From assembly GCA_963747175.1 (NCBI GenBank), contig CAVVDW010000021.1:612-64611 (forward strand): a stretch of DNA of 64,000 nucleotides, in the 5' to 3' direction. Each line of letters begins with the position of its first letter. Position 1 is the first letter of the stretch. Position numbers and translations under genes: made by a program. The stretch comes from an uncultured Alphaproteobacteria bacterium. GTDB lineage: Bacteria; Pseudomonadota; Alphaproteobacteria; Rhizobiales; Methyloligellaceae. Below the pieces are notes generated by a model. That model saw only the letters and a program-made list of their open reading frames with translations, had not been told where the DNA came from and searched no databases. Below, piece after piece: positions 1 through 18,990 of the stretch.

Positions 1-96
1 TGGCAAAGAGCGGATGGGGCATATGGAGGGCGGCTAACCAGCAGAAGACGACATGCGCCGAAACCAAAACTCAACCTTGCCAGTCCGGTTGTCGTC

Positions 97-360
97 GTGC
101 TGTTAGCGGTGGCGTCACTCAAACCAGCCGACGCCAGCGTCCCGTGCCAGGGCAATTTCCAGATCACCAAATACGGCCCGATTGCCACGCCATATTGCGA
201 GGAGGAGCAGATCGCACTCGTGGCCCAGAGCCGCGGCTGGCATGTGTCCGCTTCTGAGGTTCACAACAATCCGCTGAAGAAGATCGAAATCTGCACAGAT
301 TTTGCGGGTGATGCACGGTTGAAGGGCTCTTGTCCGGTCCGAGCCAGGCGGGGCGGGTGA
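97..360 (+). CDS. Small secreted Cys-containing hypothetical protein
   Basis: Hydrophobic N-terminus with ADA cleavage-like site, then CQGNFQ...ATPYC...EIC...SC; frame is open back to base 1 so the start is uncertain. Confidence 0.6.
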   Translation: MLLAVASLKPADASVPCQGNFQITKYGPIATPYCEEEQIALVAQSRGWHVSASEVHNNPLKKIEICTDFAGDARLKGSCPVRARRGG

Positions 361-584
361 CCATGCTGCACCTTGCAGGGTCCCCATTCGCGGCGTTTGT
401 CCGTGCTGTGCTGTTGAAGTGTTGCGGTGTTGCGGTCGGAGAGGCTCCCCCTCGCATTGTGCTTCCCCCATCGGGTCCCTCGGTCTGAAGTAGCAAAGCT
501 CGGCGTCGCGCGCGGGATTGCTGGCGTTCCCGGAGTGGGACTATCATTCCGCCATCAAATGTGGGCCTCGTCATGAGGTGACAA

Positions 585-986
585 ATGCACAGGCAAGCGA
601 TCTTCGTACTGGCCGGGGCAGTGACTCTCGCCGCATCCATTCCTGCGCAGGCTTGGTGGTGGCAAGAACTTGTGAACGCCGCCACGAAAGGGGCCGCCGT
701 GCTCGAAAAGGCTGCACCAAAGGTTGCAGGTGAGCTTGAAAAGACCGCACCGAAAGCAACACATGCTTTCACTGAGAGCGAGGCTGTCAAGGCTTGGACG
801 AAAGTCGAGGGTGGCAAAAGCGCCAGTGAAGCGACTGGAGGCAAGGGCGCAGAGGTGTTTGAGGCAATCCACCACGGAACGCATATCGTAGACGCCGCGC
901 ACAAGGCTTTTTCAAATGACGAGCAGCAAGAAGAAAAAGGAATTGCAGTAGGGTCTTGCAATTGGCCCCCGAGCGACGCCCGGTAG
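585..986 (+). CDS. Secreted hypothetical protein
   Basis: Signal peptide MHRQAIFVLAGAVTLAASIPAQA; Ala/Lys/Glu-rich body; GAGG 7 nt upstream. Confidence 0.55.
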   Translation: MHRQAIFVLAGAVTLAASIPAQAWWWQELVNAATKGAAVLEKAAPKVAGELEKTAPKATHAFTESEAVKAWTKVEGGKSASEATGGKGAEVFEAIHHGTHIVDAAHKAFSNDEQQEEKGIAVGSCNWPPSDAR

Positions 987-1149
987 TGCTTCGTGTTGAC
1001 GCCTTCGCGGACCGAGGTCCTGCTCTGTTGTTCTCGCGGCTGGGCAATGATGGCAGCGAGGCAGTAGCCTTCATCGCGTTCCTCGCTTTGCGGAGATACG
1101 GCTTCCAGCCGCCTTGGTGATGGGTAGCGGCTACTCTACTGCGTGGCGG

Positions 1150-1312
1150 TTCGTTCCAGCCCCTTTGAAGATGCTTGATGCGGGCTCTGGCAAGTAGCTC
1201 CCAAGCATGCGCCATTTCTTCGAACTGCTGTTTCTGCTTCTGGGTCCTTCATTTGAGACGCGAGCCTTCGACACTCTACGGCGCGAAGCTCATATTCCGA
1301 CACCTTACGCAT
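1150..1312 (-). pseudogene. Frameshifted small helical protein, same family as 7565-7765
   Basis: Manual read MRKVSEYELRAVECRRLASQMKDP, then one extra base, then QKQQFEEMAHAWELLARAR; 3' end approximate. Confidence 0.55.
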
Positions 1313-1608
1313 GACGAGCCCCCCTGGTGCCTTAGGCTGCCGGGTAAACTCGCAACTGGGAAAACTGTTCGAGGCCCCCTCGGTGGGGTTCCTCTCTTCT
1401 CCTTACTAGATGCAACCCGAACCCTCAGCGTGAGCGGCCCTTAGTGGACCGACCACGAGCTTTGGAGGTGCGAGATTTCGAGGGTCGATAGGAGGACTGG
1501 AGGACTGACCCCCTCCGTGCCTAGACCCTCACAGTCGTAGCTCGACGCTGACTTTCCCCGCGGGTTCATAGGAGCCCTTGGTCCGTTTCCTAGTTGTGGC
1601 ACACACTC

Positions 1609-2002
1609 TGTAACCCTAACCCATTGGCGCGGCGGTCAGAACATGGGCCTTCTGAGACCACAGGGGGTCGGGCTTTGTAACGCCTGTAACGGGTGTCACG
1701 GCCTGCGCCAGCCTGGCGACGCGACGCGCGTCATGCACCCCACGCGCTCCGCTGTAACGATCCAATAGGCGGTGGCCGGGCTTAAGTCCGGCCCGCCTCG
1801 TTAGGTGGCACTAATGCATCAAGTGACACCCAGAGCCTCCCCCACCTGCGACGATGCAACGCTGCAACGCTTCTATTGGGGGTAGGACGTCACTTTCTTC
1901 GGGCAGAGCTTCATTGGGCAGAATGAGCGCCAGGGCAGCCCTTCTGCAGCTACTCCTGCGCGAAATAACCTAGCTCGATAGCCCTGCTAACGCGACGTGA
2001 CA
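1609..2002. repeat. Iteron-like TGYMAC(G) repeats, putative replication origin
   Basis: TGTAAC at 1609, 1676, 1685, 1753; TGTCAC 1694; TGCAAC 1855, 1863; inverted GTGACA 1823, 1997. Confidence 0.5.
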
Positions 2003-2076
2003 CAGTGGATTTGTCGAGTTTCATCCACTTTGCAAGCGCTGTGCATGACACCCCGCTCGGGTACCTGTCGATACTA

Positions 2077-3242
2077 TTACCATGACATTCTCAGAGTCAG
2101 GTAACGGACCGCTTCCACAGTTTCACGCACACTGTCGTCCACGCTGGCACCCGCACTTTCGGCCACCAAATCGGCTACGAGTTCTCTGACCACAGCGTAG
2201 TCGTCTAAGCTCGCTACAATTCTGCCTTGAGCGTCTCGTTGGCGTGCCGCCTGATGCAACAGGGCATGGGTGGTGATGAGCCCTAGAACGGCTGGAATGT
2301 CGCGGCGCAGCCGGAGGGTGACGGGTGGCACTAAACTCGCTAACACATCGGCGAACGGAATTACGACATTGCGATCGCCGTCTTCGAGCCACTCTTGAAG
2401 GCGATGCCACTCAGACAAATCAGGTTCCAAGCGTGACATATTTCCGGTGTAGAGCTAGAGGCCTGAGCGCGTATGACCGCAGAGGTTTGTTCTCGGCTAT
2501 CGTCAATGGGGATGCTCAGCATTTTGGTCTCAAGCTCACTATCGAGGTGGATGGCCGTCGTAGTAACGAGCAAGTTGGTCGGCCCTTCACGTTCGATGGT
2601 CTTCGGCTCAGGACCCTCCGAGCCGCAAACTACCGTCTTGTACTTGATGCGGCCCTCAGTCAGCAGGCTTCTCATGATGTAAGCTTTCCGAAGCCGGCAT
2701 CATTCCGGCCGCTTCAGCCATAACATTGTGCGATGTTCCAAGGGCTCGTCATCGTAGATCAGCGCTTTCTCGCTGGTGCTGGTAACGTCAGAGAACGCGG
2801 AGGAGGGGAAGAAGGCCAGTACTTTGTTGGCTGTGTGGGATTTGCCTGCGCTAGAAGGGCCTTTCACGGCACCAGATATTGGCCTGGTCAGCAGTCAAGC
2901 TCGTCATTATTAGGAAGATCAGCTTCGCGGCCCTCTGTTCACCAACGAAGCCTTGTCTCCCTAGCTCACCCACTAGACGAATCCAGGATGCGAGGTTTGG
3001 AGGCGAGATTGCCACACGCTAGCCAAGCGTCGTCGCCCGTGCTCGGTGCATTCCGGAACATGGCGTTGCGGTGTTGCGTCCTCAGGGGAGGAGAGGCCCA
3101 CCTCCTGTTCCACAGCGTCGACTTCATTGCTGGAGCACTCGGCCACGACTAACTGCGTGCCAAGATCGAGCGCCTGGTTGCAAATTGACCCCGACATGGT
3201 ATATTTGTAGCAGTCGTTACATCTTTGTTGTTCATTGTTCAT
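2077..3242 (-). pseudogene. Multi-frameshifted P-loop NTPase of the primase/helicase-associated type found in satellites and ICEs
   Basis: Walker A VKGPSSAGKS at 2838-2861 (not in ORF track); later pieces REGPTNLLVTTT and VVIPFA...RLRRD...HALLHQAAR lie in different frames; 5' limit approximate. Confidence 0.7.
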
Positions 3243-3295
3243 CCCTTCTTGTGGCCCCTCTCAGGAGGGGCTGCTTGTTTCTAGGAGTTCCGTCT

Positions 3296-3544
3296 TTAGC
3301 GATAATCCGCAATCCACTGGTCGCCCTCCGGCTTGGGGATCACCAACCGACCCCGCCTGGTTGAGACTCGGCCTCGCTTGTCAGGGGCAAACACGTTGGT
3401 GAGCCTCGGGCCTCGGCCCTGTTTGCAGAGCACATGAAGCCATTGGCGGGAAATACCCGCCCGGCGTGCGAATTCCTGCACGCCATAACCTTCGATCTGT
3501 CGGTCCAAGATATTCCCTCTGTTACGTCTGCCCCAATTGACCAT
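3296..3544 (-). CDS. Excisionase/AlpA-like helix-turn-helix protein
   Basis: YGVQEFARRAGISRQWLHVLCKQGRGP motif; directly downstream of the integrase. Confidence 0.75.
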   Translation of the reverse strand: MVNWGRRNRGNILDRQIEGYGVQEFARRAGISRQWLHVLCKQGRGPRLTNVFAPDKRGRVSTRRGRLVIPKPEGDQWIADYR

Positions 3545-3807
3545 TATACTGTTCTAGACCCCAATTGTCAATGGTATTGCAGAATAATATTCGGGAGGTG
3601 TCAGTATTGCGTGGCAAGTTGTACAATAAACTGAGTTAGCTAAGCCACCAAGTCTGCCTAACTTCCAATGCAAGCTTTTCTTAGGCTGCTTACCCAGGTG
3701 GTTGAATGGGGCGCTGGCTTCTGCCGTTAGGTTCGGCGATCACTCTATTAGGTCGGTGGTCGCTTCACCCGCAGAACGAGGGCGGCCCATGAGGCGCAGT
3801 GCAAGAG

Positions 3808-5190
3808 CTATGGTTTCAAGCCTGGAACGGATGCCTTCGCCAATTGCCTCTTGAAGCTCGATGAACCGTCCCCGACGGTCATCGTGAAGGAGCGACCCAG
3901 ATATTGCGGCGAGACAGTCCGACCCCTTCGTTTAACGGGGAGACCGTGCTTCCGCAAGTAGTCGGTTATGCGCTGTTGGGAGGGCCGCAACGCGTCAACG
4001 TCCTTAGAGACATAGCCAGCGTGTACATCATTCTTCGGCAGGGAGTGATTCGAGAGCAACTTAGAATGATAAGGTGAAACGCCCGCTGCTGAGGCGGCAC
4101 TTATGTATGTGTTCCTAAGTCCGTGAATAGTGTAGTTCACCTGAACCTTTTGAGTGCGGGGGTCTCGAATGTGGCCGCTTTTGCCGCTGCCCGGGAACAG
4201 CCACTCACTATTAGTTGCTGCAAGGCGGCGCTCCACAATCGTCATCGCAGCGTTGCTAAGCGGGATGGTGTAGGCACGATCAGCCCCACCCTTGGGTTTC
4301 GGGATGGGTAGAGTAGCCTTCTGTAAACTGACATCCTCCCAACGGATTGCACACACGGTTGCCTTGCGAAGACCAGTGAGGACGGTCAGGAAAAGAAGGT
4401 CACGGATTACGTTGTTGCTAAGCTCGTCTACTTCCGCGAACCATTTGGATAGTCGCCGGAGAGGGATGGCAGCATCCCGGCAATTCTCCTTGTACATTTC
4501 AACGGCGATGGTAGGTGACACCGTGAGCGACGTATCTTCCTTCTGAGCGGTGTTCCAGATGGCTCGGAAATACCGCATCGTCTTGTTAGCAGCGTAGTGA
4601 CCGCGGCTCTTTGCCGATTGCCTCATGTCTTTCACGAAGCATCGTGGGCGTGAGCTTCCCCAAGGGCAGGTCGAGCCAATCTCGCAGCCCGTGTTCGATG
4701 TGCCAGATGTATTCAGTTATCGAACTTTCTGACTTGCCTTTGTTTCGCATCCGTTGGACGTGCCGAGCCATGGCTTGTCGGAGTGTGAAGCCCTCGACAC
4801 CCCGCTCTCCCTTCGGGTCCAGCCCCGCACGCAGCTTACGCTGATAAGCTCTCGCGCCTTTCCGAAAGGGTTCGAGTGCGTCATCGAGGTGAAAGCTCGT
4901 TCCGGCAGAGCCGCTTTCGTCAGGTCCAATGCTCTCCAACCTTGCATCGGCCAAAGACGTGATTTCATCTTCGGTTGGTAGCCGACCAAGCTCAACTGGT
5001 CGACAACCGTTGTGAAGCTGTACCGGAACTGGGCGTACACAGCGAACTTCCCTGACGAGGAAGCCACACAGCGATAGCGCAACCCTCGAACGGCTGGGTC
5101 CGCCATGGTCATATTGGGTTTGAGTTTGAACAGGCGCCTGTAAGTGATGCTTGCAGAACTGGTTCTCATGGTGGCGACCTCGTTGACCAT
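3808..5190 (-). pseudogene. Tyrosine integrase with Arm-binding N-terminal domain, two frameshifts
   Basis: Three frames join into one protein: N-terminal arm domain (LGR...SLADAR), core domain, catalytic TGLR, PKGG, HGLR, NH, AGY. Confidence 0.9.
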
Positions 5191-5282
5191 GCATTAACCA
5201 AGCCTCGCAGAAAGTCAAGCTGAAGGGCAAAAGCCCTAGGAGAAAAGCGTTTTGGGGCAACATACAGCAGCAGGAAAGTGGT

Positions 5283-5348
5283 GAAACGCAGGACTTAAAA
5301 TCCTGAGGCCGCAAGGCCGTGAGGGTTCGACTCCCTCCGTCCGCACCA
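5283..5348 (+). pseudogene. tRNA-Leu(TAA) 3' fragment, att scar copy 1
   Basis: CAGGA-CTTAAAA-TCCTG anticodon arm, long variable arm GGCC-GCAA-GGCC, GAGGG-TTCGACT-CCCTC T arm, CGTCCGC-A-CCA end; no 5' acceptor strand GCGGACG. Confidence 0.9.
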
Positions 5349-5407
5349 CAAGATCAAGCGTTATTTGGCATTATCCTACAATTAAAGTCGGCAGAGCCGA
5401 TTTTTTT

Positions 5408-5428
5408 GCTTACCCACGCGCTTACCCA
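5408..5428 (+). repeat. GCTTACCCA direct repeat, possible integrase arm-type sites
   Basis: Copies at 5408 and 5420; a third at 3688. Confidence 0.45.
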
Positions 5429-5715
5429 AAGGCAACAGATCGCGTCGCCCGGGCGAGGCTATTCGCGGTGTGCTTCCCCCAGCCGGAGTCCCACAGTGGG
5501 TCCAGTTGCAACGGGGCCCCATCCATATGGCGAGGGTCTCGGCCGCGAGAGACCATCGAACTTTAGATGAGGCGTAGATGACTGCGGCGACCCGTCTGTG
5601 CTGCTGTTTGGGCAACACCCGCTAACCAACTTCGAGCCAGTCCGCATACGCGGCGGGCAACATATGGTAAATAAGTGGGTGCGCGTCCCTGCGCGCGTCT
5701 CGATAGGGGGAAATC

Positions 5716-6341
5716 ATGAAAAGCCACATATTGGATTGGCGGCTTTGACTGCCATCGGCTTATTGGGCGCTGCCTTTGCCGGAGAGGCCACCAAACCAAC
5801 TCAGATGACGGAGGAGCAGATGGATAATGTGACGGCGGGTGTTCTGCCAGAAGATTCCGACTTCGAGGAAGCGAAGAAGACGGCGCTGCGAAAGATGACC
5901 TACGGCATGTGGGTGCTCACCGCGGGCAAGGGCGACGACCTTGAGGGCTCGAGCGTCACCTGGGTGATGCAGACGTCGTTCAACCCGCCGCTGGTGGTGG
6001 TCGCGGTGAAGGTCGACAGCCACCTCGCGCAAGTGATCGAGCGGCACCAGGCGTTCGCGATTCACCTATTAACCAAGCAGCAGAAGGCGCTCGCCGAGGC
6101 GTTCACCAAGCCGACCACGGTGGGCGGCGGCAAGATCGGCGGCATCGCGTTCAAGCCCGCGCCGGTGACGGGGGCTCCGCTGCTCGAAGGCTTCAGCGCG
6201 TGGGCAGGAGCGAAGGTGACCGACGTGGTGCGCCGCGGCGACCACTCGCTCTTCGTCGCGCAAGTGGTCGAAGCGGGCGTGAGCGACGACAAGGCGCAGC
6301 CGCTGGTGCTGGCCGAAGTCGGCTGGAACTACGGCGGCTAA
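5716..6341 (+). CDS. Flavin reductase-like (FMN split-barrel) domain with an N-terminal signal-peptide-like extension; start needs one extra A
   Basis: YGMWVLT...SFNPPLVVVAV...GAPLL...GDHSLFVAQV...GWNYGG; ATG 5716 after a purine-rich SD enters frame if the A4 run is A5 (MKKPHIGLAALTAIGLLGAAFA). Confidence 0.8.
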
Positions 6342-6415
6342 TTCCTTTCCAGAAGGGAGAGGCCGACCAGGGACGAAGTCCCTCGCGGGTGAGGGAAGCA
6401 ACCCAAACCGTCGCC

Positions 6416-6565
6416 TTACGCCCAACTCACCGTCAGCACGCCGCGCTCGCCGCGCACCGACGCATCGACGCGACCTTCCTTCACGCCGAGCGCATCGAGC
6501 GCCGCCTCGAGGGCACCCGCGAGACCACGAGTGAGCGCAATTTCGCCGACTTCACCAGCGCCAAT
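6416..6565 (-). pseudogene. Orphan C-terminal gene fragment
   Basis: IGAGEVGEIALTRGLAGALEAALDALGVKEGRVDASVRGERGVLTVSWA*, strongly GC3-biased, in-frame stop immediately upstream. Confidence 0.45.
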
Positions 6566-6647
6566 TGATCAGCTTTAAATTCCCACTGCACAGCTTTTGC
6601 CGAGGTGGACTAGTCCGCGGGTGGCGCGTGATTCAAGGTAACTAAAA

Positions 6648-6710
6648 ACGCACGACTTAAAATCCTGAGGGGGAAACCCCGTCCGGGTTCGACTCCCGGC
6701 GTCCGCACCA
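6648..6710 (+). pseudogene. Divergent tRNA-Leu(TAA) 3' fragment, att scar copy 2
   Basis: CACGA-CTTAAAA-TCCTG, variable arm GGGG-GAAA-CCCC or similar, T arm CCGGG-TTCGACT-CCCGG, CGTCCGCACCA. Confidence 0.85.
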
Positions 6711-6915
6711 ACGCTTTCCGGGTGATGATGCGCTGGACCTGACTGGCTTCAGACCCCGTACAGACCCGAAGCACACTTCTCTAATATGTGCCCGCTTCTG
6801 GCGCCGAGCCGCCGCGCTGGCCGCTACCCCCAGCGTCGGCTTCTCCCCAGGCCCTACCTCCCGGCCGGGCTAGGACTGGGGCCCCGCCATGTTGCCCGAA
6901 CCGGTGAACTTGGGG

Positions 6916-6940
6916 GGAACCTTCCGTCAGACGACAAGTT
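6916..6940 (+). promoter_or_regulatory. EcfG/sigmaT-type promoter candidate
   Basis: GGAAC-N16-AGTT; SD AGGAGG at 6958 and ATG at 6969. Confidence 0.55.
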
Positions 6941-6968
6941 GGCCCCGTATAGCCAACAGGAGGAAATC

Positions 6969-7133
6969 ATGAGGGCCATCGTTGCTGTCCTCTTCGCCCT
7001 TGCTCTCGGGACCGCATTTTCAGCGCCCGGCTTTGCAGCCGACCCGACCCAGGCAAAGACCAAGGTCGAGTGCCAGAGGGCTGGTGGAATGTGGGACGTC
7101 AAGACGAACTCATGCCTTCGTGGCATGGCCTAG
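6969..7133 (+). CDS. 54-aa secreted two-Cys miniprotein
   Basis: AGGAGG SD; signal peptide MRAIVAVLFALALGTAFSAPGFA; mature part with C...GGMWD...C. Confidence 0.75.
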   Translation: MRAIVAVLFALALGTAFSAPGFAADPTQAKTKVECQRAGGMWDVKTNSCLRGMA

Positions 7134-7229
7134 CCCGGCGAGGGTTGATCGCGCCGCTCGGGGCACTACCTAACCGGCAGCGATGATATTACCCCCATCG
7201 CGAGGTCGCTTCCTCCCTGTGGCGACCGG

Positions 7230-7267
7230 AGAGCCCCGCGCCAGTCCACCGCGTTCGGGGCTCTTTC
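7230..7267 (+). terminator. Hairpin terminator candidate
   Basis: AGAGCCCCG ... CGGGGCTCT followed by TT. Confidence 0.45.
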
Positions 7268-7282
7268 CTAGTGACCTCGTCG

Positions 7283-7308
7283 GGAACTCAGTGCGGGCGG
7301 CCGACGTT
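7283..7308 (+). promoter_or_regulatory. EcfG/sigmaT-type promoter candidate
   Basis: GGAAC-N17-CGTT. Confidence 0.6.
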
Positions 7309-7314
7309 GAGCGC

Positions 7315-7520
7315 TAGCCCTAGCCAATCCAACCCACCGCTAGGGTATCCTGCAACGGCCCGGACCCATGACCCCGGGCCGTTCCCATGTGGGCAATGCC
7401 ACAGTCAGGCCCTCGCGTGTCGCTACAATATGCACACAGCCCAGCTGCCAGGGTCGTCGAGCAGACCCGAGGCGCGAGTTGTGGGGAAGCCCCGAAGCGA
7501 CACCTCCGGGGCTTCTTCCC
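7315..7520 (+). ncRNA. Candidate structured small RNA
   Basis: Lies between an EcfG-type promoter and a terminator-like hairpin; at least five stems; no convincing ORF. Confidence 0.4.
7486..7520 (+). terminator. Hairpin terminator candidate
   Basis: GAAGCCCCG ... CGGGGCTTC followed by TTCCC. Confidence 0.45.
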
Positions 7521-7531
7521 TGTCGGTGTTG

Positions 7532-7556
7532 GGAACTCACCGCGGGGAAGGCCGTT
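7532..7556 (+). promoter_or_regulatory. EcfG/sigmaT-type promoter candidate, leaderless transcript
   Basis: GGAAC-N16-CGTT, 8 nt before ATG 7565. Confidence 0.6.
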
Positions 7557-7564
7557 CCCTGAAC

Positions 7565-7765
7565 ATGCGTTCCACGCCGCAACAATGCCGAGAACATGCC
7601 GACCACTGTCGCAAGATGGCAGAGGACGCGCCGCCTGCGCTGGCACGTGAGTTTGAGAGCCTAGCCGCGACGTGGTTGCGCTTAGCAGGCGAGCTGGAAC
7701 GCGCAGAGGCGTTCCGCCCGGACGTTCTTCCCAACGTTATCCCGCTGGAGCGAGCCCGACGCTAG
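7565..7765 (+). CDS. Small helical hypothetical protein
   Basis: MRSTPQQCREHADHCRKMAE...FESLAATWLRLAGELE, a pattern common in Hyphomicrobiales small proteins. Confidence 0.7.
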   Translation: MRSTPQQCREHADHCRKMAEDAPPALAREFESLAATWLRLAGELERAEAFRPDVLPNVIPLERARR

Positions 7766-8053
7766 GCGGCTTCAGGCAGGCGCTCGATCTCGCTCCAGTG
7801 GTTCCCGCGTTGGCGGCTGGCTTCTTTGGCAATCACGCTCGGGGTGTTGTCCGTGGCGCGGGCCTGGACTGTAGATGGAGTGGGGCTAGTGTGGGGGGCA
7901 CTGGGCTCGGCATCGGTCGTGGCCAATTGTACGAAAACACCCCTAATGGCTGGCTCTTAGTCGCGGGCGATTCTTACACGAACTCAGAGTAAGGGCGGGT
8001 AACTGATCACCCCGCCTAACGCTGGAACTGAACGAATGCACCGCGTGGGTCGA

Positions 8054-8096
8054 AGGCCGCAAGGCCGCGAGGGTTCGACTCCCTCCGTCCGCACCA
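8054..8096 (+). pseudogene. tRNA-Leu 3' fragment, att scar copy 3
   Basis: AGGCCGCAAGGCCGCGAGGGTTCGACTCCCTCCGTCCGCACCA, one mismatch to copy 1. Confidence 0.9.
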
Positions 8097-8285
8097 ATCG
8101 CGAAGGCCGCCCTTACCGGTCGTCCTCTCGATGCCCCGTCGTGCACGGCAATGCCGACGCCTCATGACGGGGGATTAATCGCTGCGCGGGCATAAATCGC
8201 CGTGCGGCGGTAAACCGCTTTGTCATGGACCCGTCAGGGGGTAGGGCTATGACAATTCGTCTTTGTCATTACCAGGAGACCTCCC

Positions 8286-9068
8286 ATGCTCTCTGGCAAG
8301 ACTGCGGTCATCACCGGATCGACCAGCGGCATCGGGCTTGGCATCGCTGAGAGCCTTGCCGCCTCGGGCGCCAATATCGTGCTCAACGGTTTTGGCGACC
8401 CCAAGGCCATCGAGGAGACGAGAGCCAAGCTCGCCCGCGCCACGAATGTCGGCGTCGTCTACAGCGCCGCAGATATGAGCCGCCCGGCCGAAATCGAGGC
8501 CATGATGGCGCTCGCCGCGAAGGAGTTCGGGCGCGTCGACATCCTGGTCAACAATGCCGGCATCCAGCATGTCGATCCGATCGAGGACTTTCCCACCGAC
8601 AAGTGGGACGCCATCATCGCCATTACGCTCTCGGCCGCGTTCCACGCGACCCGCCTCGTCGTGCCCTCGATGAAGCAGCAGAATTGGGGGCGGATCATCA
8701 ATATCGCCTCGGCGCACGCGCTCGTCGCCTCTCCGTTCAAATCGGCCTATGTCGCCGCCAAGCATGGCCTCGCCGGCTTAACCAAGACTGTCGCCCTCGA
8801 GGTCGCCACGCATGGCATCACCGTCAATGCCGTGTGCCCGGGCTACGTCCTGACGCCGCTCGTCGAGCATCAGATCCCGGAGCAGGCCAAGGCGCGCGGC
8901 ATCTCCGAGGAGGACGTCGTCCGCAACGTGCTGCTTGCCGCGCAACCCACCAAGCGTTTCGTGACGGTGCCTGAGATCGCGGGCCTCGTCCACTTCCTCT
9001 GCGGCGACGACGCCAAATCGATCACCGGCGCCATGCTGCCCATCGATGGCGGCTGGACCGCGGAGTAG
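8286..9068 (+). CDS. bdhA: 3-hydroxybutyrate dehydrogenase (SDR)
   Basis: TGSTSGIG, NNAGIQHV, SAHALVASPFKSAYVAAKHG motifs. Confidence 0.92.
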   Translation: MLSGKTAVITGSTSGIGLGIAESLAASGANIVLNGFGDPKAIEETRAKLARATNVGVVYSAADMSRPAEIEAMMALAAKEFGRVDILVNNAGIQHVDPIEDFPTDKWDAIIAITLSAAFHATRLVVPSMKQQNWGRIINIASAHALVASPFKSAYVAAKHGLAGLTKTVALEVATHGITVNAVCPGYVLTPLVEHQIPEQAKARGISEEDVVRNVLLAAQPTKRFVTVPEIAGLVHFLCGDDAKSITGAMLPIDGGWTAE

Positions 9069-9076
9069 GAGGCGGC

Positions 9077-9826
9077 ATGCGCAAGGAAGACGTGCTGAAG
9101 CTGCCATCGATGCCGGCGGCAGGTCCGAGCTACCCGGCGGGGCCCTATCGCTTCGTCAATCGGGAATACATGGTCATAACCTACGAGACGGACGCGCAGG
9201 CCATCCGCGCGCAACTGCCTGAGCCGCTCGAGCCGCTCGAAGGATCCCTGGTCCACTACGAATGGATCAAGATGCCGGACAGCTCCGGCTTCGGCAGCTA
9301 CACGGAGTTGGGTTTGGTCATCCCGTGCCGATTTAAGGACGAGGAGGTCAATTTCGTCTCGCAGATGTATCTCGACGACGATCCGCCGATCGCCGCGGGG
9401 CGCGAGATCTGGGGCTTTCCCAAGAAATACGCTCACCCCAAGCTCGAAATCGTCAAGGACACGCTGACCGGCACGCTCGAATATGGCGGGCAGCTCGTGG
9501 CGATGGGCACGATGGGATATAAGCACGAGGCGATGGCGGGAAACGGCGAGCGGACGCGCGCCGCTCTGTCGAAGACGCAAGTCAATCTGAAGCTCATCCC
9601 GGGGGTCGACGGGTCGCCCGAGATCTGCCAGCTCGTCGCCTATAATCTCACCGAGATCAATGTGAAGGGGTCATGGATCGGACCGGGGCGGCTCCATCTC
9701 GTGCCCCATGTCAACGCGCCGGTCGCCGATCTTCCCGTGAAGAAGATCATCGTCGCGCATCATTTCTTGGCCGACCTCACGCTGCCTTATGGCCGCGTCA
9801 TCTACGACTATAACCGCGACGTGTGA
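9077..9826 (+). CDS. adc: Acetoacetate decarboxylase
   Basis: PYRFVNREY, GREIWGFPKK (Schiff-base Lys region); operonic with bdhA. Confidence 0.9.
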   Translation: MRKEDVLKLPSMPAAGPSYPAGPYRFVNREYMVITYETDAQAIRAQLPEPLEPLEGSLVHYEWIKMPDSSGFGSYTELGLVIPCRFKDEEVNFVSQMYLDDDPPIAAGREIWGFPKKYAHPKLEIVKDTLTGTLEYGGQLVAMGTMGYKHEAMAGNGERTRAALSKTQVNLKLIPGVDGSPEICQLVAYNLTEINVKGSWIGPGRLHLVPHVNAPVADLPVKKIIVAHHFLADLTLPYGRVIYDYNRDV

Positions 9827-9840
9827 GCGAAGCCTCTAGG

Positions 9841-10158
9841 CTAGCGCGGGACCAGCCCACCTTGGGGCAGCTTGAACGTCGGCGGACCGCCAGTCGATCC
9901 TCCTGAGGTCCCGCCCGTCCCTCCCGTCGAGCCTTCTGACGCTCCGCCAGTCGAGGGTTTGACGCAAGCAAACGCGTTGTTCCCGGTCGATGTGAGGTTC
10001 GTGCCCTTGGGGCAGACGCACCTGCCGTCCTTCACCTTTCCGCCGGTGCAGGTGATTTCAGGCGGAGTCTTGACGCACGCATAGGCGTTAGTTCCGGTCT
10101 GCTTGGTATCGTAACCCTCCGGACAGACACACTCGCCGTTCTTCACCTGGCCGCCGGT
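9841..10158 (-). pseudogene. 3' remnant of a Cys-rich repeat protein with Gly/Ser/Thr-rich tail
   Basis: Two repeats of (C)TGG.VK.G.CVCP.G...TG.NA.ACVK; 5' part missing. Confidence 0.65.
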
Positions 10159-10290
10159 ATCCTTGGAGGCCTGATCCTCCTGTCGGCGGCAATCCTCCTG
10201 TGGCGTCGCTCGAGGGTCAGCCTGCCCGAGATCGCCGTCTATGCGATGGGGGTGGCTTCGGCCTTCGTCGCCGTCCTGCTTCTCGTCTGA
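10156..10290 (+). pseudogene. 3' remnant of a membrane protein
   Basis: GILGGLILLSAAILLWRRSRVSLPEIAVYAMGVASAFVAVLLLV*, high GC3, no start codon. Confidence 0.55.
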
Positions 10291-10425
10291 GCGATAGCTC
10301 CCCTCGTCCTGCACGCGTTTTTCGATCGGGCCATTTGAAAACCCAATCGACAACGCTTCTCCCGCTTCGTAGGCTGATCTGGATCAGTCCCGCAAAGGGC
10401 AATGCAAAGGGGAGGGGCTAAGCCC

Positions 10426-12558
10426 ATGAATGACCAGCCGCAACGCCAAACCTTTTTCGGCGCCTGTCCGCATGACTGCCCCGACACCTGCGCCATGATC
10501 TACGAGGTTGACGACGGCAAGCTGGTCGAGGTCAGGGGCAATCGCGAGCATCCCATGACCCGCGGCGGGCTCTGCGTGAAGCTGAAGGACTTTCACGACC
10601 ACCACGCCAACCCGGATCGGCTCAAATATCCCTTGCGCCGGACTGGACCGAAGGGCTCGAAGCAGTTCGAGCGCATCTCCTGGGATGAGGCGATCGGGGA
10701 GATCGGCAAGCGCTGGCGCGAGATCATCGCGACCCATGGCAGCCAGGCGATCATGCCCTACTCCTATCTCGGCAATATGGGCCTCGTGCAGGGCATCAAT
10801 TCCGGCGATCCGTTCTTCAACCGGCTCGGCACGACGGTGAACGAGAAGACCTTCTGCGCGTCGGGCTCATCGACCGCATGGCTTCTCACCGTCGGCCCGA
10901 CCGGCGGCGTCGACCCCGAGAGCTTCGTGCACTCTCGCTATATCGTGATCTGGGCCTGCAACTCGATCTCGACCAATCTGCATCATTGGCCATTTGTGCT
11001 CGAAGCGCAGAAGAAGGGCGCCAAGGTGGTGGTGATCGATTCTTACCGGTCGCGCACGGCCAAGGCCGCCGACTGGCATATCTGCCCGCGGCCCGGCACC
11101 GACGGCGCCTTGGCCATGGGCTTCATCAATTCGATCATCAGCCAGGGCCTCGTCGATCGCGATTACGTCGATCAGCACACGTATGGCTTCGAGGCGCTGA
11201 AGGCGCGCGCCGCGGAGTTCACCCCGGACTATGTCGAGAAGATCACCGGCGTCAAAGCGGCGGACGTCACGACGTTTGCCAAAGAGTTCGCGACCACACA
11301 GCCTTCGGTCATCCGCATCGGCGTCGCGCTCGAGCGACATGCGGGCGGGGGCCAGGCGATCCGGGCGGTGTGCGCGCTGCCGGCTCTCGTCGGCTCATGG
11401 CGCCACGTCGGCGGCGGTCTGCTGCAGATGCCGCTCTGGGACTTCCCCGTCGATTGGATGAAGGTCTCGCGCGGGGATTGGATCAAACCCGGCACGCGCG
11501 CGATCAACAATCTCAAGCTTGGTGCGGCGCTGACCGGCGAGATGAAGCTCGATCCACCGCTGAAGAGCCTGTTCGTGTTCTGCACCAACCCGGTGAGCCA
11601 GGCGCCTGAGACCAACAAGATCGTCAAGGGGTTGCAGCGCGAGGATCTCTTCACAGTCGTCGCCGAGCATTTCCTCACCGACACCGCGAAATACGCCGAC
11701 ATCGTGCTCCCCGCCGCCATGGCGGGCGAAGCCGAGGACATGATGTGGTCCTGGGGACATTTCTATTTCACCTATAACCAGAAGGCGGTCGATGCGCCGG
11801 GCGAATGCAAGCCGACATCCGAGATGTGGCGGCTGCTCGCCAAGGAAATGGGCTTCGACGATCCCATCTTCAAAATGACCGACAGCGAGCTTGCCGCTCA
11901 CTACATCAACTGGACCGATCCCAAGATGGGCGGCATCGACATGGAGCATTTCAAGACGCACGGCTATTACAAGATCGACGTCGGCTCGGCCGATACGCGG
12001 GCGCCGCACAAGGACGGCAAGTTCCCCACCCCATCAGGCAAGGTGGAATTCCTGCTGCACGATGCCAAGAACTTCGTGGCGGGTCCGTTCCGCGCTATGT
12101 ACGAGGGCGATCAGGACGGCTCGCCGGTCGATCCGCTGCCGGGCTATCTGCCCAACCGCGAGGCGCCGGAGACTAATCCCGAGCGAGCCAAGCTCTATGC
12201 GCTCAGCATCATCTCGCCGAAGAGCCACGGATTCCTGAACTCGTGCTACGCCAACGAGAAGCACAAGATCAAGGGGCAGGGCGAGCAGTTCGTGCTAATC
12301 TCGCCGGCCGACGCCGCCAAGCGGAATATCCGCGAGGGCGACCCGGTGCGGGTCTACAACGACCGCGGCGATTTCGAGGGCGTGGCCAAGGTTACCGACG
12401 ACGTCAATCCCGGCATCGTCGTGGCGACGCTCGGCTATTGGCGAAGCCTCAACCGCTCCGACGGATCGGTGAATTCGATCTCATCCGACGCGCATTGCGG
12501 GCTCGGGCGCGCGCCGACCTTCTCCGACAATCTGGTCGAGGTGTCGCGCGTCAACTGA
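10426..12558 (+). CDS. Molybdopterin (bis-MGD) oxidoreductase of uncharacterised subfamily, cytoplasmic
   Basis: N-terminal CPHDCPDTC...GLCVK Fe-S motif, C-terminal molybdopterin dinucleotide-binding domain, no Tat signal. Confidence 0.9.
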   Translation: MNDQPQRQTFFGACPHDCPDTCAMIYEVDDGKLVEVRGNREHPMTRGGLCVKLKDFHDHHANPDRLKYPLRRTGPKGSKQFERISWDEAIGEIGKRWREIIATHGSQAIMPYSYLGNMGLVQGINSGDPFFNRLGTTVNEKTFCASGSSTAWLLTVGPTGGVDPESFVHSRYIVIWACNSISTNLHHWPFVLEAQKKGAKVVVIDSYRSRTAKAADWHICPRPGTDGALAMGFINSIISQGLVDRDYVDQHTYGFEALKARAAEFTPDYVEKITGVKAADVTTFAKEFATTQPSVIRIGVALERHAGGGQAIRAVCALPALVGSWRHVGGGLLQMPLWDFPVDWMKVSRGDWIKPGTRAINNLKLGAALTGEMKLDPPLKSLFVFCTNPVSQAPETNKIVKGLQREDLFTVVAEHFLTDTAKYADIVLPAAMAGEAEDMMWSWGHFYFTYNQKAVDAPGECKPTSEMWRLLAKEMGFDDPIFKMTDSELAAHYINWTDPKMGGIDMEHFKTHGYYKIDVGSADTRAPHKDGKFPTPSGKVEFLLHDAKNFVAGPFRAMYEGDQDGSPVDPLPGYLPNREAPETNPERAKLYALSIISPKSHGFLNSCYANEKHKIKGQGEQFVLISPADAAKRNIREGDPVRVYNDRGDFEGVAKVTDDVNPGIVVATLGYWRSLNRSDGSVNSISSDAHCGLGRAPTFSDNLVEVSRVN

Positions 12559-12564
12559 GGCGCC

Positions 12565-13701
12565 TTACATCGCGCGCTCTTTCGGGTCGGTATCGATCTC
12601 GCGCGTGAGGTCGAACACGCGCACGCCCTCCTCCGGTGGTTTGCGGTTCTTCCAGGCCGGATGGTTCAACGTGCGCATCACGTCGGCGCGCCCTGCCTGC
12701 CAATGCTCCTCGATCGAATAGCGCGAGAACTCGTAATCGTTCGACTCGGTCCAATAGGCAGCGCGGCGATGGATGAGCTGCACGATGGTGACGGCGGCGT
12801 CGCAGCTCAAGCGGTCGAGCAGTTGCCAGTGTGGGTTGTCGTCGAACTCGGGGGGCAGCTTGCCGCGCAAATGGCGGATGGCGCGGCGCATGGCTTGAAG
12901 CTTGCAGAAGATATCGGTGTTGAGCCGCGTGCGGCTCGAATAGCGGATTTCCTTCTCGCGTTGCGGAACCTCGAACAGGTTGTCGGGCAAGCAGCCTCTC
13001 GCGCTGAAGAGGTCGATCTGGAAGATGCACATGTTCTCGCGCGGGCCACTATGTTCGAGCACTTGCTGGAGCGGCGTGTTCGACACGAGCCCCCCGTCCC
13101 AATAAGGCTCTCCGTCGATCTCTATCGGGGGAAAGCCCGGAGGCAGCGCGCCGCTCGCCATCACATGGTCGGGCCCGATCCTCTGGTGGCTGGTGTCGAA
13201 ATATTGGTGGTTGCCAGTGAGCACCTGGACGGCGCCGATGCTGAGGCGAACCGCTCCGGAATTCAGCAGGTCGAAATCGACGAGGTCGAGCAAAGTGTCT
13301 CGGAGCGGAGCCGTGTCGTAGATGCTGATCGCCGCTTTCGTTCCTTGCGGGCTCAGCACGGCTGGCGGTATGCGCGGTGCGAAGAACCCCGGTACGCCGG
13401 ACAGCGCCGCAAGCGCGGCGCTCGTCTCGTTGAACACGCGCCGGGAATTGTCATCCTTGGCAAGTGGCCGGCCAGGGAGCCAGCTCGACACGCCATCCCA
13501 AAAGGCTCGCAAGCGTTCGACGCGCTTCTCCGGTGGATTGCCGGCGATGATCGAGGAATTGACGGCGCCGATCGAGACACCCGCGACCCAGCTGGGCATC
13601 TCGCCGGCCTCCGCAAGAGCCTCGTAAGCTCCGGCCTGATAGGCACCGAGCGCTCCGCCGCCCTGGAGCACGAGAATTGTCTTCTCGTCAAAAGCCGTCA
13701 T
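12565..13701 (-). CDS. Patatin-like phospholipase with DUF3734-like C-terminus
   Basis: GGGALGAYQAG, GVSIG, DGG motifs. Confidence 0.9.
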   Translation of the reverse strand: MTAFDEKTILVLQGGGALGAYQAGAYEALAEAGEMPSWVAGVSIGAVNSSIIAGNPPEKRVERLRAFWDGVSSWLPGRPLAKDDNSRRVFNETSAALAALSGVPGFFAPRIPPAVLSPQGTKAAISIYDTAPLRDTLLDLVDFDLLNSGAVRLSIGAVQVLTGNHQYFDTSHQRIGPDHVMASGALPPGFPPIEIDGEPYWDGGLVSNTPLQQVLEHSGPRENMCIFQIDLFSARGCLPDNLFEVPQREKEIRYSSRTRLNTDIFCKLQAMRRAIRHLRGKLPPEFDDNPHWQLLDRLSCDAAVTIVQLIHRRAAYWTESNDYEFSRYSIEEHWQAGRADVMRTLNHPAWKNRKPPEEGVRVFDLTREIDTDPKERAM

Positions 13702-13711
13702 GACTGGCGCA

Positions 13712-14050
13712 CTATTCCGCGGCGATCTTTGCGCCTTTGGCCTTCACCTTTTGCAGGGAGGTGAACCCCTCGAACTCGGGATGGCCGAGATAGAGCGGCT
13801 TGTTTCCGCCGGCACCCGCATGCGCCTTGCGGAAGGCCTCAGATTGCGTCCAGGCGCGGAAATTTGCCTCCGAGCGCCATGTCGAATGCGAGGCGTACAA
13901 CACATGGCCGTCCTGCTCGGGACCTTTGAGCAGATGAAACTCGATGAAGCCCGGGACCTCTTCGAGATGCGTCTTGCGGCTGAGCCAGACCTGCTCGAAG
14001 TCACGCTCGGACCCTTTCTTGACCTTGAACCGGTTCATGGCAATGAACAT
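13712..14050 (-). CDS. ABM-family monooxygenase, heme-degrading HmuQ/IsdG-like
   Basis: MFIAMNRF...FE.VW..R...PGF..FHLL...W...AFRKAH. Confidence 0.85.
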   Translation of the reverse strand: MFIAMNRFKVKKGSERDFEQVWLSRKTHLEEVPGFIEFHLLKGPEQDGHVLYASHSTWRSEANFRAWTQSEAFRKAHAGAGGNKPLYLGHPEFEGFTSLQKVKAKGAKIAAE

Positions 14051-14293
14051 TGACGCACTCCTTCACTTGCACTCATGACGGGCTGAACCAAGGATAGCCG
14101 ACAGGCGTTGGCCCCCGTAGCATTTTCGGTAAGAGCTTAAGCCACTCCACATCGTGATTTTTATCAAGGCGTGACAAGTGGCCTCAGGGATGGGATTCGT
14201 TCTGCAAGCTGGCCTTTTCCGCGAGCGCACCCCATCTTGTTGCCGAGAGCGCAGGTTTTCGCGCTTTTCCCGCCCATTCTTCGAGGAGAACCC

Positions 14294-14827
14294 ATGAGTA
14301 AGGAAACGACTGTCAAGGAGCGCCGCAAGGCGCCGCTGACCACGCCGACCGACCTCGGCGACAATGCCCGCAAGGACATCACCGGCGCGCTGAACGCGCT
14401 GCTGGCCGACGTGTTCGCGCTCTATCTCAAGACCAAGAACTTCCATTGGCATGTGAGCGGGCCACACTTCCGCGACTATCATTTGCTCCTCGACGAGCAG
14501 GCCGACCAGATCTTCGCCATCACCGACGACATTGCCGAGCGGGTGCGCAAGGTGGGCGGCATCACGTTGCATTCGATCGGCAATATCGCGCGGCTCCAGC
14601 GCATCCCGGACAACGATGCCGACTATGTCGATCCCCTCGATATGCTGGCCGAGCTCAGGTCCGACAACCAGGCGCTGATCGCAAGCATGCGCGAGGCGCA
14701 TGATCTTTGCGACGAGGAGAACGACGTGGCGACCACGAGCCTGCTCGAAGTGTGGATCGATCAGGCCGAGCGGCGCGTGTGGTTCCTCTATGAGGCGAGC
14801 CGCAGGGGCGATCCGACCGGTCACTAG
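14294..14827 (+). CDS. dps: Dps-family DNA starvation/stationary phase protein
   Basis: KTKNFHWHVSGPHFRDYHLLLDEQ...DDIAER; SD GAGGAG. Confidence 0.92.
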   Translation: MSKETTVKERRKAPLTTPTDLGDNARKDITGALNALLADVFALYLKTKNFHWHVSGPHFRDYHLLLDEQADQIFAITDDIAERVRKVGGITLHSIGNIARLQRIPDNDADYVDPLDMLAELRSDNQALIASMREAHDLCDEENDVATTSLLEVWIDQAERRVWFLYEASRRGDPTGH

Positions 14828-14939
14828 TGCGCGACGAAGCGTGCGGGATCATCAGCCCGGGAACTTTTTCGCGGTTTCCGGGCTTTTTCTTGCCAAATGG
14901 CCCGCCCGGGGCCATCCCCACCGCCATTCGGAGAACGCC

Positions 14940-15430
14940 ATGAGACATCCTTGGTCGGCGGCAGCCTTGGCCATGCTCGTTCCGCTCGCGCTAGCAGCCT
15001 GCGGGGCGCCCAGCACTCCGGACTTCGTCCAGCAGGTTGCCATGAGCGACCTGTACGAGGTGGAGGCGGGCAAGATCGCAGCCGCCAAGGGCCAGTCTGA
15101 CGCGGTGAAGCAGTTCGGCCAGCATATGGTCGAGGCCCACGCGCAGACCACAGCCGAACTGAAGGGCGTCGTCGAGGCGGAGAAGATCGATGTCGCTCTT
15201 CCCACCTCGACGAGAAGCATCAGCGCATGATCGAGGATCTGAATGCCGCGCATGACGCGGATTTCGACAAGACCTACGCCAGGCAGCAGGTCAGCGCGCA
15301 TGAGAAGGCCGTCGATCTGTTCTCGCAATATTCCGACAAGGGCGACGACGCCGTGGTGAAAGCCTTCGCCGCGAAGACGCTGCCGGTCATCAATCAGCAT
15401 CTCGAGGAGGCCAAGAAGCTCGCTCAATGA
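14940..15430 (+). pseudogene. DUF4142 lipoprotein, frameshift near 15205
   Basis: Lipobox LAAC; SDLYEVEAGK...VKQFGQHM; second half DFDKTYARQQV.AH...LP....HL in another frame. Confidence 0.8.
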
Positions 15431-15497
15431 GGCGCTCTTGCTGTTGCCTGTAGAGGAATTGTTTCAGGGGCTTGAGAGGCGCGGCTCAGCGTTTGAG

Positions 15498-16697: not shown

Positions 16698-16709
16698 GAA
16701 GTCCCGGGC

Positions 16710-16976
16710 TCAGGCCGCCGGCGCGCCAGGCGGCGAGGTCGCCACGTAGACGCAAGAAGGCGGGTCGCTCTCTCCGTCCGAGAGGGCCGCATCGTGCACG
16801 AACAGCGTCGAGCAATAGGGACAGACGATCTGTGCGTCGTGCCCCATGTCGAGATAGACGTGAGGATGGTCGTGGGGCGGCGCCGCGCCCATGCACTGAA
16901 ATTCCTTGACGCCGATCTTGATCTTGTCGACGCCCTTGTCGTTTACGAAATGTGGCACCTCAGTTTGCGCCGCCAT
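16710..16976 (-). CDS. zf-CHCC zinc-finger domain protein
   Basis: FQCMGAAPPHDHPHVYL...CPYCSTLF. Confidence 0.85.
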   Translation of the reverse strand: MAAQTEVPHFVNDKGVDKIKIGVKEFQCMGAAPPHDHPHVYLDMGHDAQIVCPYCSTLFVHDAALSDGESDPPSCVYVATSPPGAPAA

Positions 16977-17049
16977 GACCCTGCCGGTTCCAATCTTCTT
17001 AACAGTGGCGCGCAGCATAGTGACCCTTTGGAGAAAGCGGTAGAGCGGA

Positions 17050-17802: not shown

Positions 17803-17860
17803 GGCCATATGCTAATTATGCTGAAAGTTCCCCTTTAACGGGGGAGTCAGTGAGGATGCG

Positions 17861-18694: not shown

Positions 18695-18745
18695 GGCCGG
18701 TAGCAACGCTGACGCCCGTTCGATCGGGCTTTGATTGGAGGGGTG

Positions 18746-18958
18746 GTGACAAGGGACGAGATCATCAAGCTCGAGCGCTATCTGAAGAAGGTGTTTCGCC
18801 TTCCCGTGCTCGAGGTGAAGCAGCGGCCGCGCAAAGAGGACTCAGCCGAGGTCTTCGTCGGCGATGAGTTCATCGGCGTCATCTTCCGCGACGACGAGGA
18901 GGGCGAGACCGCCTACCAGTTCCAGATGGCCATCCTCGACTACGACCTCAAGGAGTGA
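18746..18958 (+). CDS. DUF3126-family protein
   Basis: EIIKLE.YLK..F...DSAEV..G.EFIGVI..D...Y.FQMAILD; usual position after cysE. Confidence 0.85.
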   Translation: MTRDEIIKLERYLKKVFRLPVLEVKQRPRKEDSAEVFVGDEFIGVIFRDDEEGETAYQFQMAILDYDLKE

Positions 18959-18990
18959 GCGGTGCTTTCCGTGCTAGCGTGGCACGAGCG

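Follow-up and report, generated by a model that had tools for sequence, protein, structure and literature searches.

How do three truncated 3' ends of one tRNA gene come to lie in the same orientation within 2.8 kb of a bacterial chromosome, and is the DNA between them still mobile? The question is raised by a tRNA-Leu(UAA) locus, written TAA in DNA, in a stretch of 64,000 nucleotides (nt), hereafter the window, of contig CAVVDW010000021.1 (assembly GCA_963747175.1) from an uncultured soil alphaproteobacterium. Our analysis indicates that the locus very probably arose by serial site-specific integration into one tRNA-Leu(UAA) gene, that the three fragments, here called copies 1, 2 and 3 from left to right, are displaced scars of the attR type, and that the older elements have decayed. 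A tandem accretion site with decayed members at this tRNA gene is well supported by the composition of the copies, by alleles of the same species and by related species. The phenomenon is already known as a genomic-island hotspot, and no new mechanism is revealed.

Three fragments from different tRNA lineages

The 11-mer CGTCCGCACCA has exact plus-strand matches at 5338-5348, 6700-6710 and 8086-8096, and a repeat search returned a single family with 65-nt units at 5284-5348, 6646-6710 and 8032-8096. This confirms an earlier interpretation made without database searches (the sequence-only reading), which had listed three same-strand fragments of differing lengths ending at 5348, 6710 and 8096. 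The copies are spaced by 1362 and 1386 nt, all in direct orientation, and are 60-65 nt (copies 1 and 2 each) and ~43 nt (copy 3) long. Relative to the first unit, the second is 85% identical and the third 69% overall, the genuine likeness of the third starting at ~8054 and covering 43 nt at 97.7% identity to copy 1. Copies 1 and 2 begin in the anticodon stem, whose loop CTTAAAA holds the anticodon TAA, and continue across the long variable arm and the T arm as far as CCA; of copy 3 only the part from the variable arm onward (8054-8096) is recognisable. The T-loop block GGGTTCGACTCCC occurs at three places only in the window, which are the copies, against 0.10 occurrences expected, and the anticodon block GACTTAAAATCCTGAG is confined to copies 1 and 2. 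A fourth exact match of CGTCCGCACCA, on the minus strand at 31204-31214, lies within a coding-like run without further tRNA features and was taken as a chance occurrence.

No intact tRNA was called by ARAGORN in the window, and across the window Rfam gave no match at its gathering score and, at an E-value threshold, only partial T-arm matches to unrelated families. When the 45 nt upstream of copies 1, 2 and 3 were compared with the native 5' half, the background fractions of random window segments scoring at least as high were 0.05, 0.36 and 0.05, respectively. Because these segments resemble the native 5' half no more than random ones do, the statement of the sequence-only reading that no copy retains a 5' acceptor strand stands. 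A possible pairing partner of the 3' acceptor strand of copy 2 is the motif GCGGGTG (6617-6623), but the fold of the copy 2 region including this motif is not above shuffles (z -0.66). The idea that the arms before the copies are degenerate tRNA 5' halves was rejected, as their likeness is not significant and the copy 2 region does not fold above shuffles.

Of the ten positions that distinguish copy 2 from copy 1, eight make up four pair changes. In the variable-arm stem GGCC/GGCC is replaced by GGGG/CCCC and in the T stem GAGGG/CCCTC by CCGGG/CCCGG, with pairing kept in both, and the anticodon stem of copy 2 contains a C-C mismatch. Together with 10 nt of its 3' flank, copy 2 is 95.9% identical to the native intact tRNA-Leu(TAA) of a related species (L011), and copies 1 and 3 match the native tRNAs of two others (L009 and L010). 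The stem-keeping paired changes and the match to L011 indicate that the copies are halves of functional tRNAs from different lineages rather than drifted duplicates. The locus also shows how a tRNA 3' half can be replaced by the sequence of another lineage. The sequence-only reading had seen the scars and had missed both this foreign lineage of copy 2 and the intact tRNA, which lies outside the window.

Alleles in related species and in the same species

To the right of copy 3 is core chromosome, with genes for an SDR (short-chain dehydrogenase/reductase; bdh), acetoacetate decarboxylase, a molybdopterin oxidoreductase and others. By identity of the SDR protein, the nearest species representatives are three metagenome-assembled genomes, two of uncultured Alphaproteobacteria (L009, 94%; L011, 84%) and one of a Methyloceanibacter sp. 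(L010, 89%). All three have the order aspS, a small gene, ceramidase, an intact tRNA-Leu(TAA), 579-1748 bp and the SDR gene. Moreover, window positions 8106-8161 are homologous to the DNA downstream of the intact tRNA in L009 and L010, and copy 3 together with the flank to its right therefore represents the ancestral end of the tRNA gene, still at its native position. An identical arrangement in relatives with no empty site, which the sequence-only reading had named as the outcome that would speak against it, was not found, since the related species are near-empty at this site.

The SDR protein is identical in eight contigs, and an exact-protein look-up with it yielded two long contigs of the same species, L001 and L002, whose flanks are 99.6-99.9% identical to the window. 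L002 corresponds to window 5276-19062 at 99.8% and has an intact tRNA-Leu(TAA) at the place of copy 1; upstream of this tRNA lies different DNA, including a second integrase, Y. In L001 the order aspS, ceramidase, intact tRNA is kept, the tRNA carrying a third type of 3' half. It is followed by a different insert of 5.1 kb without an integrase, at whose right end 33 nt of the arm that precedes copy 1 in the window (window 5256-5288, L001 8354-8385) are fused to a decayed copy 2. From this junction rightward L001 is identical to the window, and interval 1, the DNA between copies 1 and 2, is absent. As this arm belongs to the integrase-bearing element X on the left of copy 1, its fusion to copy 2 in L001 shows that elements of the X family integrate at this locus in this species.

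The fusion in L001 (8354-8436) lacks the anticodon stem-loop (GTGAAACG-GAGAAACCCCG) and is a decayed attR. Single-base homopolymer differences inside the tRNA copies of L001 and L002, e.g. GACTCCCCTCC, are probably long-read errors.

Metagenome assemblies add further alleles. GTAGACACA precedes position 5289 in unitigs of runs X7 and X14, which is the intact-tRNA allele at the place of copy 1. In a unitig of run X12, GACACACAG precedes position 6654 and the window arm 6512-6653 is without coverage, which points to an intact tRNA at the place of copy 2. L001, L002 and L004 contain interval 2, the DNA between copies 2 and 3, which has zero coverage in run X7. Every allele breakpoint, in the window, L001, L002 and the unitigs, lies inside tRNA-like sequence. 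The strain comparison proposed by the sequence-only reading therefore came out as it had expected: contigs of the same species differ in the number and content of intervals, and they do so at tRNA-like sequences, which supports an accretion hotspot. Together with the empty-site relatives, these alleles support serial integration at one tRNA leaving 3' duplications.

Element X and the geometry of its attachment site

Element X occupies the window left of copy 1 and has a G+C content of 0.53-0.60, compared with 0.62-0.66 in the core. Its tyrosine integrase matches PF00589 above cut-off (E 9e-9) and the integrase family phrog_1 (E 1.6e-26), and the R, HxxR and Y motifs are visible in its open reading frame (ORF) as LTGLRKA, HGLRNTY and HAGY. 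Full-length relatives align to the window gene in three pieces, in frames -2, -1 and -2. Relative to the intact gene of the contig L090 (95% DNA identity) there is a 1-nt deletion at ~5018/5019 and a 1-nt insertion at ~4605, and the two put ~137 codons out of frame. With PF13356 an intact relative at 94% identity (P0002) scores weakly (15 bits, E 0.028; cut-off 27), and relatives at 35-44% identity match both PF13356 and PF00589. The small AlpA-like gene, 76% identical over 70 amino acids at 3508-3299 (tblastn with the HTH_17 protein of contig L091 as query), is likely an excisionase or regulator. P-loop/helicase-like ORFs on the minus strand at 2077-3242 are broken, and to judge from its sequence element X is decaying. 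Exact-protein look-ups with the window ORF 585-986 and with the integrase ORF (P0001) gave no match. Viral contigs scanned with both integrases, a conserved 90-nt segment of interval 1 and the type A 3' half of copy 1 gave none or one remote match, the latter at 34% identity over 75 residues.

The integrase start at 5169 faces copy 1, with ~120 nt between them. This arm contains the paired repeat TTGACCA-TGCA-TTAACCA at 5183-5200, and its stretch ending in ...GGCAACATACAGCAGCAGGAAAGTGGTGAAACGCAG is identical in L090, where it stands beside the 94%-identical integrase. In L090, which has an intact integrase (94% at the amino-acid level), 36 nt of the arm up to ...GTGGTGAAACGCAG are identical to the window, and beyond them follow a different tRNA-Leu(TAA) 3' half and a different flank. 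In L091 (81%) the arm differs, the foreign 3' half is the one also present in L090, and the gene set is int-HTH_17-AAA_25. In both, the integrase is followed by ~100 nt, the arm and a divergent tRNA-Leu(TAA) 3' part. The same divergent geometry is found in three relatives at 39-43% identity (L098, L102 and L104) beside tRNA-Lys-like 3' parts, and in L092 (52%) beside a tRNA-like 3' part of unassigned type; L094 (49%) lies just downstream of a complete tRNA-Leu(TAA). The geometry shared across these relatives shows a conserved association of this integrase clade with tRNA 3' parts. The arm travels with the integrase while the 3' half and the flank change, as is expected of an attR. The anticodon stem has a mismatched 5' strand in copy 2, L090 and L091, while the sequence from the loop onward is tRNA-perfect, which points to exchange at or just after the anticodon loop. 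This would place the crossover in the anticodon-centred class described by Islander.

The arms contain direct-repeat pairs of 7-9 nt one helical turn apart. Repeats of the TTGACCA type are present in the X arms and in the left arm of the L001 insert, and no repeat pairs were found after the native tRNAs of the relatives. Comparable pairs occur at ~1.1 per kb in the window, and each case is weak alone; taken together they fit candidate arm-type integrase sites.

The motif GGCAACA occurs four times on the plus strand in 406 nt around copy 1 (5256-5662), compared with 14 occurrences in 64 kb, and also at 6890 on the minus strand. It is doubled in the arm of integrase Y in L002 and in its relative L108 (GGGCAACAT twice, period 11). 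These are candidate arm-type binding sites.

The two intervals

The recognisable content of the intervals (Table 1) consists of a flavin reductase, two small ORFs and a gene fragment, without integration or transfer genes. No integrase was found in 5349-8053 by tblastn with X-family integrases or by Pfam on the interval ORFs, and the two intervals have no common sequence. The flavin reductase matches PF01613 (E 6e-31), NCBIfam flavin-reductase models remaining below cut-off. The fragment at 6416-6568 is a C-terminal piece (gene 3' end) of 48 codons (...GERGVLTVSWA*) with stops upstream. Contigs of runs X7 and X14 match the window up to 6511 and then continue into other coding-like sequence, so an intact parent of the fragment exists elsewhere. 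The two ORFs of interval 2 (54 and 66 amino acids) gave no family matches, and a promoter scan found nothing. The two 1.3-kb intervals are best read as decayed remnants of once-complete elements, resembling cis-mobilizable elements (CIMEs).

The conserved segment of interval 1 matches L001 3447-3533 at 85% (GTGCTTCCCCCAGCCGGAGTCCCA...GGCGAGGGTCTCGGC...). In both places, after copy 1 in the window and after the intact tRNA in L001, this stretch of ~90 nt is separated from the tRNA end by 110-180 nt and precedes a small signal-peptide ORF. Rfam gave no match to it and viral contigs no exact match; it could be part of the attP arm of the element or a leader.

At window position 5716 a good ribosome-binding site and an ATG open a 10-codon ORF (MKSHILDWRL*). 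One frame away, a signal-peptide-like stretch (IGLAALTAIGLLGAAFAGEA...) is continuous with the reading frame of the flavin reductase domain and lies ahead of the called start at 5820. For the region 5716-5830 there are two readings, a small secreted-protein gene with a frameshift or an unusual N-terminal extension.

Table 1. Coordinates of the features of the locus, in window positions
Feature	Position	Strand	Remarks
Element X body	1..3295	.	low GC; broken P-loop/helicase-like ORFs, small secreted-protein ORFs
AlpA/HTH_17-like small gene of element X	3296..3544	-	tblastn
Tyrosine integrase of element X	3937..5169	-	PF00589, phrog_1; two 1-nt indels
Integrase-proximal arm of element X	5170..5288	+	attP-derived side of attR
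Copy 1	5289..5348	+	tRNA-Leu(TAA), anticodon stem to CCA, type A 3' half; equals the 3' part of the intact tRNA of L002
Interval 1	5349..6650	+	remnant of integrated element
Terminator in interval 1	5384-5404		intrinsic
Paired repeat GCTTACCCA-CGC-GCTTACCCA	5408-5428		interval 1, after copy 1
Conserved 90-nt segment	5462-5550		interval 1
Flavin reductase gene	5820-6341		interval 1; 173 amino acids, intact-looking
Gene fragment	6416-6568	-	interval 1
Arm before copy 2	6569-6650		interval 1
Copy 2	6651..6710	+	tRNA-Leu(TAA) 3' part, type B
Interval 2	6711..8053	+	older remnant
Paired repeat CAGACCC-CGTA-CAGACCC	6750-6767		interval 2, after copy 2
54-amino-acid signal-peptide ORF	6969-7133		interval 2
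66-amino-acid ORF	7565-7765		interval 2
Copy 3	8054..8096	+	final 43 nt of tRNA-Leu(TAA), type A; native downstream flank still attached
Native core flank and SDR gene	8097..9068	+	3-hydroxybutyrate-dehydrogenase-like SDR (bdh) at 8286-9068, locus anchor

Proposed history of the locus

A history that would join these observations begins with the tRNA-Leu(UAA) gene as the site at which integrative elements insert by means of tyrosine integrases, each of them bringing its own tRNA 3' part within attP. A crossover within or adjacent to the anticodon loop would join the 5' half of the host gene to the 3' half of the element to give a functional tRNA, and the resident 3' half would be pushed to the far end of the element, behind its arm, as an attR scar. 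The order of events would then be read from right (oldest) to left (youngest) as copy 3, copy 2, copy 1 and element X. Copy 3 would be the original tRNA end on its native flank. The first element would have brought the type B half that is now copy 2, and the second, with the flavin reductase, the type A half that is now copy 1. Element X would have inserted last, its integrase-proximal arm abutting copy 1, and the live tRNA would be expected at the far left end of X, beyond the window. L001 would represent a separate branch, entered by an X-family element ahead of the one with the flavin reductase, and L002 and the unitigs would represent the stage preceding X. The older elements would have lost their integrases and most of their genes by deletion, leaving the two att-flanked remnants of 1.3 kb; signs of such decay are the missing integrases, the truncated gene in which interval 1 ends and the decayed L001 junction.

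Several observations weigh against this history. The intact tRNA of this genome lies outside the window (the source contig has 65,522 nt), and the attL of X is not seen. The junction between X and copy 1 is present in this contig only, and X stood beside the locus in none of the eight metagenome runs that hold the locus. The frameshifts of the integrase fall in short homopolymers, where assembly errors are possible. Neither excised circles nor empty-site joints were observed in assembled contigs. Copy 3 lacks the anticodon part, so that either another crossover point was used or the scar was later trimmed. Finally, integrase Y in L002 lies directly upstream of the intact tRNA, a placement that the simple model does not predict.

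Integrase Y (L002 2878-4298) is P4-like, with PF13356, PF22022 and PF00589, and is split over three frames in L002. It starts 157 nt upstream of the intact tRNA-Leu(TAA), diverging from it, and its arm ends at the first base of the tRNA. An 84% relative in L108 (7000-7460) has the same arm followed by non-tRNA DNA, and L109 and L110 have no tRNA within 21 kb. Y may belong to an element inserted at the 5' edge of the tRNA, or to one carrying a whole tRNA copy.

Alternative explanations

The sequence-only reading had likened the locus to a cassette array. In its strongest form, the intervals would be still active, cis-mobilizable cassettes, and an integrase of the X family, whether incoming or resident, would recombine any two copies in an integron-like exchange, by which intervals are cut out, reshuffled or taken along by a neighbouring element. 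Both intervals do lie between direct tRNA 3' copies without a recombinase of their own, as in the definition of CIMEs (PMC5704250); interval content varies among contigs of the same species, and short repeat pairs one helical turn apart, like arm-type sites, stand just after copies 1 and 2. The alleles are, however, explained by different insertion histories: the left arm of copy 2 differs in L001, and no clean recombinant of copies 1 and 2 is seen. Copy 3 is without the anticodon-loop region of the presumed crossover, and copy 2 has a mismatched anticodon stem. Moreover, no integrase lies nearby apart from the frameshifted one of X, a third and larger element, and interval 1 ends in a truncated gene. 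Excision joints at 95% likeness were not reported in four runs (assembled contigs, not reads). At 90% likeness a pair of skip-joints appeared in run X5 (5337->6680 and 5338->6684), which looks artefactual; with sides of only 20-21 nt inside the T arm, the two were rejected and treated as misalignments of other tRNAs. Active cassettes are thus unlikely, and the likeness to a cassette array is not supported in the form proposed.

Distinctly unlikely, in our estimate, is the broader idea that the integrase-less intervals form a working cassette pool, which X-family visitors excise, pick up and redistribute among soil alphaproteobacteria. If it were true, this locus would serve as a natural landing pad with several slots, and the 3' half of the tRNA-Leu(UAA) itself would be swapped repeatedly between species.

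The junction of X with copy 1 deserves separate treatment, because the contig could be chimeric inside the tRNA sequence, with X from another organism; copy 1 would then be no real scar, and two scars only would remain. This would account for a junction that is unique to this contig, for the intact tRNA at the place of copy 1 in L002, X7 and X14, and for the absence of X beside the locus in every run examined. Window 3000-5170 has zero coverage in four metagenomes that hold the rest of the locus. The soil runs X1-X4 contain scattered low-depth pieces of X only, with no independent support for the junction, and a metagenome scan for the X arm gave no match. Against a chimera, L001, of the same species, has an X-type arm fused to copy 2, and the geometry of X-type arm and tRNA fragment is real in L090 and L091. 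The exact sequence common to type A and the only known 3' half of the X family (type D) amounts to just ~15 nt, too little for an assembler to be misled by. We therefore consider a chimera very unlikely.

Local duplication by slippage or unequal crossing-over, without mobile elements, would suit the direct orientation and similar spacing of the copies (1362 and 1386 nt) and is scarcely credible, given that the intervals have no sequence in common, that copy 2, with its compensatory changes, is of a different tRNA lineage, that an integrase and its conserved arm abut copy 1, and that relatives have empty sites.

Relation to known systems

Serial integration at a tRNA gene places the locus beside the islands catalogued by Islander (Hudson, Lau & Williams 2015, PMC4383910), which rests on the displaced-fragment principle and describes tandem arrays and anticodon-centred sites; it lists 2083 anticodon-centred sites, 3760 islands bearing 3' fragments, and 125 tandems with at least two members. 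For tandem islands at tRNA and tmRNA genes that paper cites Williams 2002. As in Islander islands, an element with a tyrosine integrase splits and restores the tDNA, the far end is recognised by a displaced 3' fragment, arrays arise when the site is used repeatedly, and the crossover would be centred on the anticodon. Islander asks for a tDNA fragment in direct orientation with the intact cognate tDNA at the opposite end; the three fragments here are direct and derived from tRNA-Leu(TAA), and the intact gene, outside the window, is seen at the expected side in the same-species contigs L001 and L002. Empty sites are also found, the tRNA of L009, L010 and L011 lying 0.6-1.7 kb from bdh and the breakpoints falling at tRNA-like sequences. 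In contrast, Islander accepts a tandem only if every member has an integrase, whereas two of the three members here have none and only element X carries one, which is frameshifted. The intact tDNA is here outside the window, unlike in Islander islands, and the integrase is at the attR end, reading away from the fragment, rather than beside the regenerated tRNA.

Decay to CIMEs and site-specific accretion are reviewed in PMC5704250, which cites Pavlovic 2004 and Bellanger 2011 for accretion of ICESt1/ICESt3 of Streptococcus thermophilus. Interval 1 is flanked by the att sequences of copies 1 and 2 and interval 2 by those of copies 2 and 3, both without integration or transfer genes, and on sequence grounds the intervals fit the descriptive definition of CIMEs. 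The locus differs from the ICESt1/ICESt3 case in that it contains no recognisable conjugation or mobilisation genes, in its uncultured alphaproteobacterial host and in its target, tRNA-Leu(UAA).

A close parallel is provided by the ssrA islands of Dehalococcoides (McMurdie et al. 2011, PMC3146451), tandem islands downstream of one small-RNA gene that are bounded by direct repeats of the ssrA 3' end and vary among strains in number and content. Some of them are without integration modules and were proposed to be CIMEs (PMC3146451). Tandem units, 3'-end direct repeats, variable content and members without integration modules are common to both loci. The Dehalococcoides islands have a serine recombinase beside attL, a 20 bp ssrA repeat and reductive dehalogenase cargo, whereas here the integrases are tyrosine integrases, the tRNA repeats are 43-65 nt and the cargo is small or unassigned.

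The likeness to integron arrays is one of picture only, i.e. short gene-bearing units, repeated recombination sites and an integrase nearby. There is no IntI-type integrase, attI or Pc here; the integrase belongs to the phage/island type, tRNA 3' halves take the place of attC hairpins as repeats, and the units contain their own non-coding arms and gene fragments. Rfam was empty at gathering score, and no specific attC scan was made.

The value of the locus is that the stepwise accretion and decay of islands at a tRNA gene can be followed in a clean and datable case, in a soil alphaproteobacterium that is abundant though uncultured and whose intermediate alleles are still found in public metagenomes. 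It also yields a candidate tRNA-Leu(UAA)-specific integrase/att pair, consisting of the intact L090 integrase, the arm and a 60-nt core, as a potential integration tool.

A possible repeat-containing ORF to the right of the locus

Further to the right, a stretch of ~100-200 nt inside a minus-strand ORF of 170 amino acids (9841-10353) has many overlapping matches in a relative: window 9959-10158 matches such places in L009 at ~11970-12800. This suggests a repeat-containing protein that is expanded in L009.

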